35,251 nt of DNA, from the IMG/VR virus record IMGVR_UViG_2757320370_000007, positions 137,719 through 172,969 of that record. One strand, written 5' to 3'. Of this stretch, positions 303-22,718 are shown in pieces (the first letter of the stretch is position 1; each line of letters starts with the position of its first letter). A program made the position numbers and the translations under genes. The stretch comes from a virus. Below the pieces are notes generated by a model, which ran no database searches, was not told where the DNA came from, and worked only from the letters and a program-made list of their open reading frames with translations.

Positions 303-3300
303 ATGGCAAACCCATTGGCAATACTCATATCGGCTAAGCTAAATTCAGGTCTCGCACTGAAAGACCTTAACGCTTCAATTAGGGCATTAAGCAAGCATCC
401 TTCCCTCCAAAAAATTGATTTAAAACTTAATATAGATAAGTCATTTATAAATAACATCCAATCATTGTCAAAGAATCTTAATACTATTACCTCTCAGCTT
501 CAACAACAAAGTACGGCCAATAATGCTGTTAATAATAGCTCAAAGAACACTACTCAGAGCATCCAAGATCAAACAAAAGCCACAAATGAAGCTATTAAGG
601 CAGAACAAAAGTGGCAAATTGAACGCGAAAAAACCAACAGTAAGGGCATTCGTACCGTTACATCAGGGAATAACGTTGATAATTCTAAGCAAACTGTTAC
701 CTATTTACCAGATAATTCTATTAAGAATATTGATAATATCACAAATCAACTAAAGGACTATAAAGCACTTGAGGCATTGGATAGAGATCATTACAACGCA
801 CTCAAAACGAATCAATCTAGAATTGAAGCTATGGATAAACTTCATTATCTAGCACTTCAAAAGAATCGCGACCTAGATTGGAAGAATCTCCAGGCATCAA
901 ATAAACAAGCAGAAGCAACAGATAAGGCTCACTATCAAGCAATCAAAATGAACAATGATATGATTGCCAAGAATCAAAAACAAACTCAGTCATTAATCAA
1001 TTCCGCTTTCTCTGGTAAACAAAATACAAATAGCGCCTCTAGTGGCGTTGCTGAAGCCAAGGCTCTCGATATTCTCAATAGACAATACGATAAAGTATTG
1101 AGCAATCTTAATGCTGCTAAGAATAGTGGCAAGCAATTAACTGATAGTGAATTGACTGGGATTAATCGAAGAATAGAAGCTTTGAATAATTTAGCTTCGA
1201 GACAAAAAACAGTTGAAAAAGATCGTGCTACCCTCTCCTCTACTCAATTACGTACAGAGACCCAGATTAACAATCTGCTTTCGGGTAGGCATAAGGACAA
1301 GGTTGATTCAAGCCAATTGACAAGTTTGTTGGCGCAATTAAAAAGCTTAGACACTCAAACAGCCAATTTCAAGACTAAGTCAAAAGAAATTACCGATCAG
1401 ATTAATCGTATTGGTGCAGAGGCTAGAAATGCGTCTCCTAATGTCCAAGGACTAGGAAATATATTAAAAACGACCTTTAGCAGCATGCTTATGTATGCTG
1501 GTGTGGGTAGTTTGTTCTATGGTTCTATTAATGCTTTAAAACAGATGACGCAAACAATTATTGAAGTCGATTCGCAATTGACACAACTTAAGCGTGTTAT
1601 GGATGAAGATACTGACTTCGATAGCATGTTGACAAAAAATATAGGACTAGCTAATGAGTTAGGTAGAAGTATTAAAGAGGTAAACGAAAATGCGATTGGC
1701 TTTGCCAGAATGGGTTTTGATGAAAATCAAACTGTTGAGCTTGCTAAGACTGCAACTCTATTTCAAAACATATCTGATTTAACACCAACCGAGGCTGTTG
1801 ATACGCTAACGGCATCAATGACCGTATTTGGTGTTGAGGCTGGTAAAAGTATCGAAGTAGCGAATAAAATTAACGAAGTAGATAACAATTTCGCAGTAAG
1901 TTCGCAAGGTCTTGCATTGAGTATAAATAAATCTGCTTCAGCCGGAAAGACCTTTGGTGTTACTATCGATAAATTAATCGGAGACACAACAGCCATTACA
2001 ACAGCAACTAGAGAATCAGGAGCAGTGGTCGGTAAACTTGTTGCCGCTTAATCAAGTGATTGATTAATGAAAACTTTGCTATATCGGTGGAAGCGTTGGG
2101 GAACGTAATACCGAGGGAAGATATATTGTTATTAATATACGTTTTATAGATTGGACACTACTTAGATAGGAGATTAAATTGAAAATCACAGAACAAAAAA
2201 TATTGGTTAATTGGCATGGTAATACTAAACAACACTATGAAGAACTTGGGTATAAATTCACTAAATATGGGGATGTATTTGAGGCAAGTTTTATTGAGGT
2301 TCCCAAAAGTTCTAAGATCAAAGCAGATGTTAAATGTGATGTTTGTAGAAAAATTTATAAACTTCAAATTCATCAAATTAATAGAGCAGAGAATCATATA
2401 TGCTCTCAAGAATGTAAATATTTATTTGGTAAAACACTACTACATAGGTGCGGAATTTGTGATAAATCGTTTTACAGAAATAAAACTCAATGTGATAAAA
2501 GCGAAAGTGGTCTCTATTTCTGTTCAAATAAATGCGTTGGAGAATATAACAAAAGACAGAGGACACAGAACATCACTAAAAATTGTCTAATATGTAATAG
2601 TGAATTCAAAGTAAAAGCTAGTACATATGATAATCAGATCACTTGTTCAAGAAAATGTCAAGGTTTATGGCAGTCAAGAGAACGGATAGGTGAAAAATCA
2701 AGCAATTTTAGAGGCGGAAAAATCGAAAAGGAATGTTTTGAATGCAAAGATAAGTATTTCACTACCCGTCATGCATCGAAAACTAGCAAATTTTGTTCTC
2801 AGTTCTGCAAACAAAGATATTGGGCTAAAAACATTATAGTGAAAGAATCATTTAAAATTGCCAAATATAAAGGAAATGAAAAATACAGAATGACAAAAGG
2901 TGAAACTCTTCCTGAAAAAATGGTTAAAGAGTGGCTATTAAAAAACAATATTCCTTTTCTTCAGGAGCAGGGATTTTTCCATAAATACTACGCTGATTTC
3001 TATCTACCAAATACCAATATTATTGTTGAAGTTTTTGGAGACTATTGGCATACTAATCCAGATATATACGGAGATAATTTAATACAACCAAATGAGCATC
3101 AAATTGCTCAAGTAGAAAAAGATAGGATAAGAATTGAGACATTTAATAAATATGGATTCAAGGTCATAGTTCTTTGGGAACATGAAATTTATGAAAATAT
3201 TGAGAGTCTATTAAAAAGCAAAATAATAACAATATATCCCCGTAACGACTACACGCAGAGCATCTAGTATTTCTAGATGAAGATATAGTCTGATCTTGTG

Positions 3301-6300
3301 CCATAACCCAGATACAAAAAAGCACAGAGAGGCGGTCAAGTGTAAAGACACTTTAAAGGAGTACCGCCTCCGCTATACTTCTATTTGTAAGTATAGTCAG
3401 TAGGATCTGTCAATAAAGATCTGAAAGTAACAGGATGAACGCACTGAAAACAATCTATTCTCGCTTAACAACAATGAGTAAATCAGAATCAACCCTCGCA
3501 GCCGTTGGTATTAAAATGAGAGAACTGAATGGAGAAGTTAAAGATGCTCCGGTTATTCTCGATGAATTGGCCTCTAAGTGGGGAAGTCTATCTAAGGAAC
3601 AACAACAAAATACTGCTGTAAATTTGGCTGGCCGATTTCAGCTCTCCAGGTTCCTCGCGCTCATGCAGAATTACCAGATATCGGTAAATGCGACAGAAAC
3701 AGCTTTACATTCACAAGGGTCTGCCGTATCTGAAAACGAAAAATATATGCAATCACTTGAAGCCAGAATTCAAAAGATGAAAACAGCTTGGGATACACTT
3801 GCACTGGCTATGGGAAATGCAATTATTTCGGACTCGGTTGTGGTTATAACATCACTATTAACAAGCTTGGGGAATGTTCTCGCATCCACAGTGGAACACT
3901 TTGGTCTCCTCCCTGTCTTATTCGGTGTTTCTTATGCTGGATTAATGTTATTAAGCACTGGTTTTAGGATTTTTATAGTTAACATTACAACCACAATTGC
4001 CAGTCTTTTTGGTATGACTGCTGCTGCAAGTGGCGCAAGAATGGGACTAATGGGATTGTCTGCTTCCGCAAAACTTGCCGGAATAAGTTTAAAGAGTATG
4101 TTGATTAGTACTGGTGTTGGGGCAGCTCTTGTTGGTCTGGGTTGGATACTTGAGAAAGTTATAGGACATTTCGCGAAAACATCCGAAGTTGTTGATGAAG
4201 CAGGATCAAGTCTTGATCAACTTAAAGAGAAAACAGGAAATCTAAAAGAGCTTCAAGATTTGTCCAATGAATACAATGAATTAGCAAATAAAACGAATCT
4301 AACCACGCAAGAAAAAATTAGACTTGCTGGCGTTGAATCCGATCTAGCATCAAAACACGGCGTAACAATGAAAACTGTCGAGGATCAGACTGATGCTGTA
4401 CAGGCCAACACTGCCGCCATAGGCGATAGAATCGACAAATTAAAAGAAGAAGCAGCGATTGAGCAACAAAGAGCATTGGATGAGTACAAGGCCAATAAGA
4501 CACAGATAAATTCTGACATTCAAACTCAAGAATCAGCAAGAAAAACGGCTCAAGCAAAACTTGATGAATTAATAAAACAGCAGAAGTACATTGAAGACAG
4601 TGTTGCAAATAAAACCGTAATTAAAAACGACGCAGGGCAACTACCTTACACTCAGAACGCACTCCTTGAAATCGACCCCAATGACGCTAAAAACACAAAA
4701 AGAGCCATTGCGGATCTCAGTGAAGATATTGCTCAAGCAATTATCGATGCCAGAAAAACTTTAGAAACTGCTGGAACCGAACTTGACAAAGTAGTAAGTA
4801 AAAGAGAACAAGCATTTAAGGCCCAATTCTCTGCCTACGCCGACACCATCGAGGCTGGTGGTACTGAGGTTAAAGCGTCTACAAGAGTTCTTGCCGATGG
4901 GTTTGCGTCTATCGTTGCTACAGCAAAAACAGACGATCTAGAAGTATTAAATAAGTTTAAAACTGAATTGTTCAATACATTCCAAAAGACAGATGTAAAT
5001 TCGATGGATGATGCTGTTGCATCCCTTGAAAAAGTGGCTGGTGCTGCCGGACTAACAAAAGATCAATACAACATTCTCCAAGTTGCAATTAGTCAACTCA
5101 ATTTTCAAGGTGTAAATGATGGCGTCGAAGGAGTCGGTGACACCGCCGAAGATTCAAAAGACGAAATTATTTCTCTGACGGATGCTATGAAGGCACTGGA
5201 TGACACCATGAATGGAACGTCAGATGAGATGACTGCATTTGTAAAGTCTATCTCCGATTCATCTGATGAAATTGAACTTTTAACATCTGCTCAGAATGAA
5301 TTGAAAAAATCTAACAATCTTTCTACTTCTACTATTACCAAAATGAATGAAAAATACGGAGACTTTATAAAGGTTACTGGACTTAGTAAAGATAAGGTAT
5401 TAGAGTTCATTAAGTCTAAGAAGGATGAGAAAATAGCTGTTGTTAATGCTGAAATAGCTATGACAAAACAGGCTATTGATGGTGCTAAAAAACGGATTGA
5501 AGCAATGGAAATTGAAGTTGCTGCAATCAATAAAAAACGAAAAGCACTAGCTCAAGAAAGAATTGATTCTTTAAACGCCGGAGTTTCAGATGGAACCATT
5601 AGCGAATCGTTAGCTGAAAAACAGGTTGCTGCTATTTTGAGAAATGGTGATGATACCGTTCTCGATCTGTCTATTGAAAAGTCCGGTCTTGATGCATTGT
5701 CTGCAAAACTTAGCATCCTCAACTCTGTAAAAGAAGACTTTGTTACTGTAGCAAATAAAACAGAAAAATCAACAAAAGATTCCACCAAAGCCAATAACAC
5801 AAACTACGACTCAGTATCCAATACCGTAGAAATCCTCACTGATCTTCAGAAAGAACTCCTCGCTGTTGATGTTGCACAAAAGAAGCTCCAGAACTCTCAG
5901 GATAAACTCAAGGATGGCTCTAAGGAACGTCAGGAATCCATCAGCAAAGAGATATCCTTACTCAAGGAACAGAAGCGACTCTATGAAGAGGGTATTAAAG
6001 ATCCATCAAAGTTAGTTTCCACTAAAGTTACGACCACGGTTAAAACTAAAGCATCTGATTCCGACTCTACCGCCTCCACTAGCGCCATTGCTAATATGGT
6101 TGATGCTGCACGTAGCCTCCAAGGTAATTTCACCTACGGGCAAGTCGGGGGTAAGTTTAAGGGTACTTACGATCAATTTGTCGATGGAGCAGTATCGGAT
6201 TGCTCTCAGTTTATCCAAGAAATGTTTGATGAATTTCTTGATGTAAAAGTACCCCGCACAGCAGCAGAACAAGCCAAACAGGGTGTTGCTGTTTCTAAGG

Positions 6301-8936
6301 CGGATCTAAAGGCTGGGGATCTGGTATTCTTTAATACTACCGGGAAGGCAAATTCCCACGTTGGTATGTATACCGGAAACGGCAAGTTTATTCAAATGGG
6401 GAACAAGGGGCTTAGTGAGCAAGATTTAAATAGCAAGACATGGACACAGAAGTATAAATACGAAGGTGCTAGACGCGTTGCTTCTGATTCATCTTATACC
6501 CCTCTCTCCTCTTCCTCCGATGGTAAGTCTACGTCTAAAGTTGGTGGAAAAACTGTTAAAACTGACAACGCTACGGCAAAGGAAAAAGCTGATGCAAAAA
6601 CAGAGGCAGAAGACAAACTTGTTGCTCTAGATTCTCAGATCCACACTGCTTATATTAAGAGTCTGGATAACACTAAAACAGGGTTTGAACAGTTAATTGC
6701 CGACCAAGAGAGCGCAATTGAAGCATCTAAGAAAAAACAAGATACTCTTGATCCCAACTCTGCTGAATGGCGCAATGAGAACAATAAACAAATTAATTCT
6801 CAGAGCAAAATCCAATCGATCAAAAGTGATGAGAAGAATCAGCTCCAATACATGATGGATGCTTTAGGCGTTCAATTTGCTGATTATGACGCTTATTTAA
6901 AGAAATTGTCTTCAGATTGGTTGGATGTTCAGGCTGAAAAACTGTTTAAGGTGTATGCAAACATCACCTCTTCCATTGACTCATCGAAGCAACGCATTTC
7001 TGATCTTGGAAATGTAATTGATAGCTCCAAGAATAAGATGTCTCAGCTTGAAGAAGGATCATCTGACTATAACAAAGAACTGAATATTCAAATTGCCACT
7101 ACTAAGAAGCAAAAAACTGTTAATGATGAGTTGATTGTAAGTACGGAAAAACAACTAACAAATCAGAAGTTGAATGCTAAACAGAAATCCGACTTGAATA
7201 AAATACTAGATGAAGCCAAATTAGAAGATTATACTGCGAAGATTAAGGATTTAAACGCAGAGTTAATCAACTCTAAGTCTTATCCTCTAGAGAATGAATT
7301 GTCTGAATTGAATCATCAATTGGATCTCTCAGAAGCAAAGATGAAGGGTTATGTAGAAGGATCGGAAGAGTATAATCAAGCAATTAAAGATCAGGTTTCT
7401 ATTCTTAGTGATAAGATTTCGGTTACCAAAAAACTTATCGACTATGAGGAAACCCAGTCGAGAAATGAAGAATTAACAGCATCGGCTAGAGAAGAACATA
7501 GAAACAAACTTAGAGAATATACTCTGAGTCTTTATGAATACTCGGATGCGGTTAAATCACTTCGAGAAGATTATGCTGATAAAATAATTGAGAATTATAA
7601 AAAGTTACTTCAAGAACAGCAAAAAATCCAGAAAGATGCATATGAAAAAGAAAAAGAATTAGAAAATGAACGCCACGAAACCAGAATTAATAATCTAGAG
7701 TCTGAGTATCAGGCGTTCGAGAATAATATTAATGCTCAGTCTAAAAGTTTAGATCGAGAAGTTTCTGAAGATGATTATAAGAAACAATTAGCTATACTAC
7801 AAAAAGAAAAGGCAGAACTTGATGCTAAGTTTAGTAGTAAGCTATTAGATGATTCCCTTGAAGCCAAAGCACAGCGCGTCGACATCCAAAAAGAGATTGA
7901 TGCCAAAGCAGAAGAAATCACAAAACTCCAACGCGATAGAGAAATAACTATTCGCAAGGATGGTTTGTCAGATCAACTTGAGGATCGTAAGAATGCTGTT
8001 GATAAAGAGAAAAAGCTTGAAGATGATAAGAATAAATCGTTCATCAGGAATATTGATAGTCTCATAAAGATTAATGACGATTATTATAATGGCCTACTCA
8101 ATGACGAACAGTATTTTTATAATATGAAGCAATCCCTAATGAGTGGCGACACCGTTAGAATACAGAATGAGTTAGGCATTGTTCAGGCTGCTTATACAAA
8201 TTTTTATCAGGAGTTAGAAAAAAACTCTAAATTATACGCTGATAAGATTTCTTCTAATCTTAAATATGCGATGAGTGTTGATGAAAAATATGCTCAAAAC
8301 TATCCCCTAGCAGACAAAAGCAACAATGATACGGGTACTGGATCAGGCATTGAATCGGGCAATGGGAATACCAACCCTGTAACTGGCGGCAGATCAGAAA
8401 AACAGACCGCTTGGGATAGTTATCTCTCTAACAAACAAAAAGCAGAACAGCTTAAGGCTGATATGCGTACTTTAATAAAAAATTCTGCTGATTATAAAAA
8501 TAAACAGGCTCAATTTGAATCATTAAATAGCACAAATGTCGGATATCGTACTAAATATGGGTTCCCTGATGGCTCATACGAGGAATTAAAGAATAAGGTG
8601 TTTTCTGCAAAAATGGGCGGTATGACCCCCGCTGGTATGCCAGATGAAGGTCAATTCCTACTCGCGCATGAAAAAGAGCTTGTATTGGATAAATTCGATA
8701 CCTCTAAATTATTAAAGATAATTAATATTTCGAGAGATGTTTTCAGTAGTTTGGGTAACAATATTGCCAATATTCTTCCGCAGGGTATATTCAACAATAA
8801 CGTCAAAACACCACAAGCAATTGACAATAGTTTAAGCATTCGTATTGACAATATTAAGGGAGACAAGGAAGGAGCCAAGATCGTCACCGACAGCATTGAG
8901 GAACTGTGGAATAAAAAAACAAAACAAGGATGGTAA
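303..8936 (+). CDS. Tail tape measure protein (SPbeta YomI/CwlP-like), join(303..2033,3438..8936), 2409 aa after splicing, with internal NlpC/P60 peptidoglycan peptidase
   Basis: TP901-type core (IIEVDSQLTQLKRVM...NKINEVDNNFAVS...ATRESGAVVG) continues in frame as NALKTIYSRL once the intron is removed. Hydrophobic segments, long coiled coils, C-terminal LAHEKELVL motif. Confidence 0.93.
2034..3437 (+). mobile_element. Group I intron (1404 nt) in the TMP gene, with homing endonuclease ORF in P6
   Basis: Exon ends in U (GGT, 2033); intron ends in G (3437). P1 CGGU/GCCG with U.G at 2043. P10 UGUU/AACG. P2 TTAATCAA-gtga-TTGATTAA. P3 CTTTGC/GCAGAG. P4 TCGGT/ACCGA. P6a GATATATTGTTATT/AATAACAATATATC. 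P7 AcGACTA/TAGTCT with J8/7 GAAGATA. P8 CATCTAG/CTAGATG. P9 hairpins at 3293-3430. Confidence 0.95.
2179..3267 (+). CDS. Intron-encoded homing endonuclease: CxxC...CSxxC zinc-finger repeats plus C-terminal Vsr/DUF559-like (EDxHD-type) nuclease
   Basis: AGGAG RBS and TTG start; four CxxC-(n)-CSxxC units; TLPEKMV...YADFYLP...VEVFGDYWH...EKD...IVLWEHEI nuclease signature; lies inside the P6 loop. Confidence 0.85.
   Translation: MKITEQKILVNWHGNTKQHYEELGYKFTKYGDVFEASFIEVPKSSKIKADVKCDVCRKIYKLQIHQINRAENHICSQECKYLFGKTLLHRCGICDKSFYRNKTQCDKSESGLYFCSNKCVGEYNKRQRTQNITKNCLICNSEFKVKASTYDNQITCSRKCQGLWQSRERIGEKSSNFRGGKIEKECFECKDKYFTTRHASKTSKFCSQFCKQRYWAKNIIVKESFKIAKYKGNEKYRMTKGETLPEKMVKEWLLKNNIPFLQEQGFFHKYYADFYLPNTNIIVEVFGDYWHTNPDIYGDNLIQPNEHQIAQVEKDRIRIETFNKYGFKVIVLWEHEIYENIESLLKSKIITIYPRNDYTQSI
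6084..6479 (+). other. NlpC/P60 cysteine peptidase domain within the TMP
   Basis: DCSQF...PRTAAEQ...LKAGDLVFF...HVGMYTGNGKFI...ARRV, flanked by Ser/Thr/Lys-rich linkers. Confidence 0.9.
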
Positions 8937-21828: not shown

Positions 21829-22718
21829 ATGGCGAATCCTGTGATAATTTGGATGAACGCAACAAATTCGGCACCAGTCACAACACCATTCAATTTTGGG
21901 GTAATCGATGCAGATGATGTGTCCGATCCACATACTTTTAATATTTGGAATAATAAAGGCGGAGCAACCGATGTATCAAAAATGGAAGATTGCACAATCA
22001 CAACTCGTGATATGTCCGGTGGACTTGGTAACACGGTGGGAAGTGAGATTGAGGTAGTTAAGAACAACTGGTTCCATGTACAAGTAGACTCTATGGGCGA
22101 GACCGATCTAGCTCAAGAGTCTTCACGTATTGGTAAAGATTATACCAAACCTCTTGGTACGACTGGCACTACAAAGAAGGATAATACTGGTGCATCATAT
22201 CCAACTCCACTCAAACCAGGAGCGAAAGAAATTTTAGGAGTTAGAAATAATGGTATTGCTCTTGATGCTGCTGGTAACTTCGTTACAGTCACTCTTCAGG
22301 CAGATGTACCACTGGAAGCTAAGAGTGGACAACAAGCGTTCAAAATTCGGGTTAACTTTGTAAAACTGGCCCCCTATATCGGTAACGATGTGGCGTAAAT
22401 TCTTTAAATTGCTGGAACCCCCTAAAGATTTTCATACTACAACGTGACTGGTAACGGTGAGCGTGAACGTGGTCGAAAGACGGAAAAAAATGAAAATATG
22501 GTCTATGCTGAAATAAAAGCCATACTTACTTAGATGGTGCTAAGGACTTCTAATGGGAAATCGTAGCAGGGAAATCTCTTGTTTAAGAGAGACCTTCAAC
22601 GAGCGTAATAGGAATATCCCTGTGGGATAATGGTGCGCTCTACTCCGACTCAGACAATATGAGTGTAAATATCTCGAAAGAGACGGTATTCATAATAAGC
22701 AGTTATCGTTACGTTTAA
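21829..22718 (+). CDS. Putative virion structural protein, join(21829..22352,22700..22718), 180 aa ending FKIRVSYRYV
   Basis: AAGGAG RBS; beta-rich protein. Removing the intron joins CGG GT|C AGT TAT CGT TAC GTT TAA. A terminator follows exon 2. Confidence 0.82.
22353..22699 (+). ncRNA. ORF-less group I intron (347 nt)
   Basis: IGS AACTG-G-CCC (22364-22372) pairs with 5' exon GGGU (U.G) and 3' exon CAGUU (P10). P2 with GUAA loop. P element AAATTGCTGGAA, Q element TAGCAGG. P3 ATTCTT/AGGAAT. P6a TCTCTT/AAGAGA. P7 AcGAGCG/CGCTCT. P8 TATCCC/GGGATA. P9 TCTC-gaaa-GAGA. Terminal G at 22699. Confidence 0.9.

Follow-up and report, generated by a model that had tools for sequence, protein, structure and literature searches.

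The question raised by this locus is whether a phage tape measure gene that is read as two separate open reading frames (ORFs) is a decayed gene, a gene that works in pieces, or a gene interrupted by an element that is removed from its RNA. The locus lies in a 35,251 nt stretch of viral DNA, here called the window, which covers positions 137,719 to 172,969 of the IMG/VR record IMGVR_UViG_2757320370_000007. In the window, one ORF at positions 303–2051 encodes 582 amino acids (aa) and a second at positions 3435–8936 encodes 1833 aa. A first-pass annotation, made from the letters of the window, had interpreted the two ORFs as exons of a tape measure gene split by a homing group I intron. Our analysis makes it highly likely that positions 2034–3437 are a mobile group I intron that carries an endonuclease gene and interrupts the tape measure gene in a large prophage resembling SPbeta; removal of the intron by splicing would leave an mRNA for a 2409 aa protein.

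The exon joint in the tape measure gene

Exon 1 (303–2033, plus strand) comprises 577 codons and exon 2 (3438–8936, plus strand) comprises 1832 codons and a stop. Position 2033 is the end of the complete codon that closes exon 1, and position 3438 shares the reading frame of the apparent start at 3435. Joining 2033 to 3438 in silico gave 2409 residues followed by a stop, with both exons open over all 2409 codons, and this reproduced both the length and the tape measure protein motif that the first-pass annotation had quoted across the joint. The position of the break was further located using PF10145 (PhageMin_Tail), which was matched by exon 1 alone at a score above its cut-off (56 bits versus 33.2). 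Residues 449–577 of exon 1 corresponded to profile positions 3–135, the match ending at the last residue of the exon, and residues 2–66 of the second ORF corresponded to profile positions 136–201. The proposed joint thus coincides exactly with the break in the domain, which separates the neighbouring profile positions 135 and 136.

Exon 1 aligned without gaps to uninterrupted homologues. The junction-spanning part of the joined protein, searched using tblastn, aligned ungapped across the joint with SPbeta YomI (47 % identity) and with the tape measure protein of Bacillus phage pW2 (50 % identity). Another SPbeta-like tape measure gene lies on the minus strand of the same genome, ~0.9 Mb away (G000:C1:3245193-3248886; loci L096 and L097); it also aligned ungapped across the joint, with 54 % protein identity over 310 residues, and it is uninterrupted at all three intron sites known from relatives. 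The DNA of this paralogue differs at many positions near the insertion site, and the paralogue may for that reason be no target for the endonuclease. Alignment to intron-less homologues had been proposed as a check on the two-exon interpretation, and these three alignments, together with the split PF10145 domain, agree with it.

The first two bases of the intron are the same as the first two bases of exon 2, so the joint is ambiguous by up to 2 nt when judged from protein alignment alone. It is only the rules of group I introns (a U before the 5′ splice site, paired with a G in helix P1, and a G as the last intron base) that fix the joint between 2033 and 2034 and between 3437 and 3438. In line with these rules, the 'ATG' at 3435 was confirmed as the last three bases of the intron, as the first-pass annotation had it, by the alignment of G3437 with the terminal G of all related introns. 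There is no properly spaced ribosome-binding site (RBS) before 3435, where the sole purine-rich run directly abuts the ATG, and this absence makes separate translation of a second polypeptide less likely. When the intron is retained in the RNA, the frame of exon 1 halts at an in-frame stop at 2049–2051 (plus strand), five codons into the intron and within the 5′ strand of helix P2, and the earlier expectation that such RNA would give a 582 aa stub was upheld.

The second ORF also encodes an NlpC/P60 peptidoglycan peptidase domain, at window positions 6192–6455 (residues 920–1007; Pfam E value 7e-21), which is thereby included in exon 2 of the tape measure gene.

The ribozyme and its covariation

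The intron (2034–3437, plus strand) measures 1404 nt, made up of a 313 nt ribozyme and an insert in loop L6a, and it was recognized by a sub-threshold match to RF00028, by homology and by covariation. Searching the whole window with Rfam at the curated gathering thresholds gave no match. At permissive settings, the RF00028 group I intron model matched positions 3149–3312 with 29.7 bits and an E value of 3e-5 (3.9e-5 in a whole-genome search), its curated cut-off being 50 bits, which is an operational threshold and not a structural definition. The covariance-model search that the first-pass annotation had suggested thus returned a match of low E value, yet one that stays under the curated cut-off. 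The low score is due to the inability of the model to span the 1.1 kb gene in L6a; the model truly aligns only the segment J6/7-P7-P3′-P8-J8/7-P7′, where the intron is a near base-for-base match to the consensus. In particular, bases 3279–3296, which hold J8/7 and the guanosine-binding P7, follow the Rfam consensus almost base for base and with maximum posterior probabilities.

Relatives of the intron were found in other tape measure genes. Over its 3′ part, it shares 74 % identity with an insert, unannotated, that interrupts this gene in Microcystis phage MaeS, and 68.5 % identity with an ORF-less insert of 312 nt in the corresponding gene of Bacillus sp. T33-2, the latter scoring 87.1 bits (E value 8e-23) on RF00028. 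An ORF-less intron at the same site as that of the window, in the metagenomic contig L102, scored 40.9 bits on the same model. DNA similarity to the phage introns of the Bacillus cereus group was not found in the phage collection. No terminator-like site was seen on the plus strand inside the intron, and the promoter and terminator scan yielded nothing above chance. The region at ~22353–22718 of the window showed no sequence similarity to the tape measure intron and no Rfam match at gathering level. The exact core motif (J6/7-P7 through J8/7-P7′) was also seen to recur in many genome bins of Saccharibacteria and other Patescibacteria (L077–L094), where it presumably marks introns of this general group I type that lie in other genes.

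Covariation was assessed using six introns, of which five bear a gene, the loop interior being excised by coordinates, and one is ORF-less; these were aligned and then folded using RNAalifold. The consensus contained P1, P2, P3, P4, P5, P6, P6a, P8, P9.0, P9.1, P9.1a, P9.2 and P9.3. Over the 82 consensus pairs, 96.7 % of cells were standard pairs and 47 columns were compensatory, compared to 37–43 % standard pairs and 5–11 compensatory columns in controls in which the 3′ partners were slid by 1–3 columns. P7 is omitted from this nested fold because it crosses P3; the two form a pseudoknot (P3, 2074–2079 with 3255–3260; P7, 3247–3251 with 3286–3290), and P7 is invariant in 12 relatives. Compensatory changes were observed in P3, P4, P5, P6 and P8, with zero broken pairs in the window sequence. 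A further alignment of twelve divergent 3′ halves, using MAFFT and RNAalifold, recovered only P7, P9.2 and P9.3, with P8 and P9 misaligned.

The core helices P1 to P10, which the first-pass annotation had considered pairable by eye, were all placed at coordinates on the plus strand and with comparative support. The P2 hairpin (2048–2067) has 8 bp and a GNRA tetraloop, and five of its seven scored pairs are compensatory. The 5′ strand of P3 (2074–2079) finds its partner across the endonuclease gene at 3255–3260, with compensatory changes in four of six pairs and none broken. P4 (2084–2089 with 2109–2114) encloses P5 (2093–2097 with 2102–2106), the whole occupying 2084–2114. P6 and P6a likewise pair across the gene, from 5′ strands at 2115–2117 and 2121–2133, respectively, to covarying 3′ strands within 3225–3241. 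P6a is a long-range stem of 9 to 14 bp in each intron, different in sequence each time, and in the window its 13 bp close the loop that holds the gene.

The first part of the catalytic core consists of J6/7 (3242–3246), the 5′ strand of P7 (3247–3251) and the 3′ strand of P3 (3255–3260), and the second part of P8 (3261–3267 with 3273–3279), which covaries, J8/7 (3280–3285) and the 3′ strand of P7 (3286–3290). Between P3 and P8, the intron has no room for P7.1 or P7.2. The peripheral 3′ domain (3291–3422) contains P9.0 (3291–3292, pairing with 3431–3432), P9 (3295–3301 with 3322–3328), P9.1 (3329–3336 with 3363–3370), P9.1a (3338–3343 with 3348–3353), P9.2 (3373–3380 with 3389–3396) and P9.3 (3403–3408 with 3417–3422), and compensatory changes were present in P9.1, P9.1a, P9.2 and P9.3.

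At the splice sites, the P1 hairpin (2030–2046, plus strand) pairs positions 2030–2035, the last four bases of the exon and the first two of the intron, with a guide at 2041–2046. The U2033-G2043 wobble is kept in all six introns, and the remaining P1 pairs vary with the insertion site. The part of the guide that forms P10 (2039–2042, plus strand) pairs with the first four bases of exon 2 (3438–3441). The MaeS and T33-2 introns, which are inserted at other sites, have different guide bases that match their own exons on both sides, and such site-adapted bases are to be expected of a functional guide. The intron closes with a conserved 3′ tail of 15 nt (3423–3437, plus strand), which ends in the terminal G3437. 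Further relatives were found in IMG/VR through the endonuclease; in 38 of 80 IMG/VR loci, the 11 bases that open the tail are found again downstream of a related endonuclease gene.

The endonuclease gene and the distribution of related introns

Loop L6a holds an intact homing endonuclease gene (2179–3267, plus strand) of 362 aa, which has a TTG start and a strong RBS (2168–2173, plus strand) 5 nt upstream of that start. Full-length homologues were found at 51–59 % identity. Since the gene looks intact, the intron is probably still mobile. Its last 14 codons (3225–3267) coincide with the 3′ strands of P6a and P6, J6/7, the 5′ strand of P7, the 3′ strand of P3 and the 5′ strand of P8. The C-terminal residues of the protein are conserved in 4 of 10 homologues (P0002–P0004 and P0007), and this conservation is apparently a by-product of constraint on the ribozyme RNA and not on the protein.

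Pfam assigned DUF559 to the window protein and Vsr to 7 of the 11 family members, and the residues E246, D273, H291 and D315 do not vary across the 11 aligned members. A sequence search of the PDB returned weak zinc-finger matches only, and no nuclease. The protein was further examined using an AlphaFold model, which had a mean predicted local distance difference test score of 83 (~90 in the C-terminal domain). The top Foldseek matches of this model were 1cw0 and 1vsr (E. coli Vsr) and 3r3p (the catalytic domain of I-Bth0305I), with a probability of 1.00 and target TM-scores of 0.75–0.78. As modelled, the fold of the catalytic domain is Vsr-like (EDxHD-type). The four invariant residues fit the EDxHD composite motif and presumably correspond to it residue by residue. 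The N-terminal 240 residues form four or five cysteine-rich modules, each a beta-hairpin plus a helix.

Introns at the identical codon boundary were found in four IMG/VR metagenomic contigs, two with an endonuclease gene (L098 and L099) and two short and ORF-less (L102 and L141). Related introns also occupy a site ~54 codons upstream of that of the window, in MaeS, L102 and L126, and a site ~72 codons downstream, in T33-2, L141 and L126. Tape measure-like sequence lies near 50 of the 80 best-matching IMG/VR loci of the endonuclease family, and on both sides in 22.

In several large phage contigs (L102, L126, L141, L104–L108 and L110), a single tape measure gene contains two introns of this lineage, as a rule one with an endonuclease gene and the other ORF-less. 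In the record of MaeS (L001, MT362618.1), the insert at ~1866–3178 is unannotated, and the gene pieces, like the intron endonuclease, are entered as hypothetical proteins. Geobacillus virus E3 (L004, NC_029073.1) has a tape measure insert of ~300 nt at the MaeS site (~2744–3041), which we left unclassified and which had no Rfam match at an E value of 0.01 or better; in its record, N- and C-terminal tape measure genes appear as separate entries. In the same locus as the T33-2 intron (L088, NZ_PGVB01000002.1, 3503–3814), core or tail motifs recur near 4442, 5279 and 5359, which suggests one or two further introns downstream.

Weighing the explanations, and comparison with known systems

Three other explanations of the locus were considered. 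The intron could be a decayed group I intron in a cryptic prophage, splicing so inefficiently that the tape measure gene would amount to a pseudogene. We consider this improbable. An RF00028 score under the cut-off is what decay might produce, but the 1.1 kb L6a insert, which is beyond the span of the model, explains that score, and J6/7, P7 and J8/7 match the consensus. The overlap of the endonuclease frame with the ribozyme core, and the lack of a near-identical prophage in 60 related genomes, would also be compatible with decay; against this, all core and peripheral helices are intact, with zero broken pairs in the window sequence, the exons have stayed open over their 2409 codons, and the endonuclease is full length and retains every residue that is invariant in its family.

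It is a good deal less probable again that a free-standing endonuclease gene has split the tape measure gene and that the 582 aa and 1833 aa polypeptides cooperate without splicing. The downstream ORF does open with an ATG at 3435, and phage genes are known that function as separate polypeptides after being split, one case being cited in PMC10448857. However, that ATG lacks a spaced RBS, the endonuclease gene is flanked by a complete covarying ribozyme, L102 and L141 have ORF-less introns at the same site, and the interruption divides a conserved domain between two neighbouring profile positions. Some other kind of insertion, for example an intein, an insertion sequence or an assembly artefact, has no specific support and can be given hardly any credence: an intein is excluded by the in-frame stop five codons into the insert, the same architecture occurs in independent phage records and metagenomic contigs, and the genome is a single closed contig.

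Some observations weigh against the preferred reading of a mobile group I intron that is spliced from the tape measure RNA. The spliced joint is a prediction from DNA sequence, and the RF00028 score of the window intron itself, at 29.7 bits, is below the curated cut-off of 50. The covariation set comprised only six sequences, and the structure was predicted from those same six. P7 and P9.0 are invariant in the relatives and hence without covariation support, and P9 was misaligned by MAFFT, so that its support is pairing by eye. In addition, the endonuclease gene runs through P6, P7, P3 and P8, and its translation could interfere with folding. Finally, a DNA search of 60 related genomes found no closely related prophage, and there is no recent pair of intron-plus and intron-minus alleles.

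With the intron reading as the most probable one, the following mechanism is proposed. The tape measure gene would be transcribed as one RNA, in which the intron would fold into a P3–P8 core with a P3/P7 pseudoknot. The guide at 2039–2046 would hold the 5′ exon via P1, including the U2033-G2043 wobble, and the 3′ exon via P10, and two guanosine-initiated transesterifications would join 2033 to 3438, giving the mRNA for the 2409 aa tape measure protein. Any RNA left unspliced would give only the 582 aa fragment, and the efficiency of splicing in vivo may in this way limit virion production, as the first-pass annotation had proposed. From its own RBS, the gene in L6a would be translated into the 362 aa endonuclease, predicted to combine tandem zinc-finger-like, cysteine-rich DNA-binding modules with a Vsr-like nuclease. 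During co-infection, the enzyme would presumably cleave the conserved tape measure site in copies that lack the intron, and repair of the cut would copy the intron in.

A more far-reaching version of this mechanism can also be envisaged, in which ribosomes on the endonuclease frame unfold the ribozyme, so that translation and splicing are mutually exclusive, and in which the intron and the 582 aa product time or dose the full-length tape measure protein. In its broader form, it holds that a lineage pairing zinc-finger-like modules with a Vsr-like nuclease has specialized on the tape measure domain, at no fewer than three sites, in phages of Bacillota and cyanobacteria. We regard this extension as rather unlikely and offer it tentatively.

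These results bear on how such loci are annotated. Automated gene calling would yield two proteins of no apparent relation in place of the tape measure protein, together with a hypothetical protein, and the intron escapes Rfam at the curated threshold; similar mis-annotation is visible in Geobacillus virus E3 and Microcystis phage MaeS. A tail length predicted from either fragment of the tape measure protein would be wrong. Current understanding is not overturned by the window intron, which may be a further example of virion assembly that relies on RNA self-splicing. One intron and endonuclease lineage has repeatedly settled in the conserved tape measure domain of distant phages, and a Vsr-like endonuclease with an unusual cysteine-rich array may interest those who study or engineer DNA-targeting enzymes.

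In its layout, the intron resembles the td intron of phage T4, a group I intron in which the gene of I-TevI is looped out of P6a, as the endonuclease gene is here. The td intron differs from it in encoding a GIY-YIG enzyme, in having both P7.1 and P7.2, and in residing in a host gene of nucleotide metabolism.

A close likeness for the enzyme is I-Bth0305I, the EDxHD endonuclease of a recA group I intron in Bacillus phage 0305phi8-36 (Taylor et al. 2011, PMC3239194; PDB 3r3p), whose catalytic residues are E170, D196, H213 and D222 and whose composite motif defines the EDxHD family. Both enzymes are intron-encoded and have a C-terminal, Vsr-like catalytic domain, and the Glu-Asp-His-Asp order and the first two spacings of the window endonuclease resemble those of I-Bth0305I, although a plain sequence search finds no connection between the two. 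I-Bth0305I carries NUMOD motifs, whereas the window protein carries four or five cysteine-rich repeats, and the host gene is recA there and the tape measure gene here.

Introns in tape measure genes have been described before. In prophages of the B. cereus group, the group I introns TMP-IVS1, TMP-IVS2 and TMP-IVS3 interrupt tape measure genes at three sites (Tourasse and Kolsto 2008, PMC2504315). These introns share with that of the window a location in the conserved part of a prophage tape measure gene, an early in-frame stop (in P1 or P2 there and in P2 here), a pattern of related introns at different sites with P1 and guide adapted to each, and a mixture of endonuclease-bearing and ORF-less copies. 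In contrast, the present host is outside the B. cereus group and, from the name of one homologue, probably belongs to the Paenibacillaceae, and the endonuclease is Vsr-like, compared to H-N-H in TMP-IVS3a and GIY-YIG in a related terminase intron. The phage introns of that study were assigned there to subgroups IA1 or IA2; the window intron has no space for P7.1/P7.2.

The tape measure gene of Vibrio phage ICP1 is interrupted by an intronic HNH gene, with splicing established by RNA-seq and reverse transcription PCR, and tape measure genes were reported to be frequently interrupted (Barth et al. 2023, PMC10448857). In both ICP1 and the window, a homing endonuclease gene that lies in an intron divides the tape measure gene, but the two belong to different phage groups, the ICP1 enzyme is of the HNH class, and splicing is demonstrated in ICP1 and predicted here from sequence. 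The first-pass annotation was right to place a group I intron within the tape measure gene at the joints given above, which the divided domain, the homologues, the covariation, the relatives and the endonuclease fold all favour, and it overstated the implied rarity of such introns in structural genes, in view of PMC2504315 and PMC10448857. Tape measure introns were published in 2008 and 2023, and the window intron repeats this pattern in a different host and with a different class of endonuclease.

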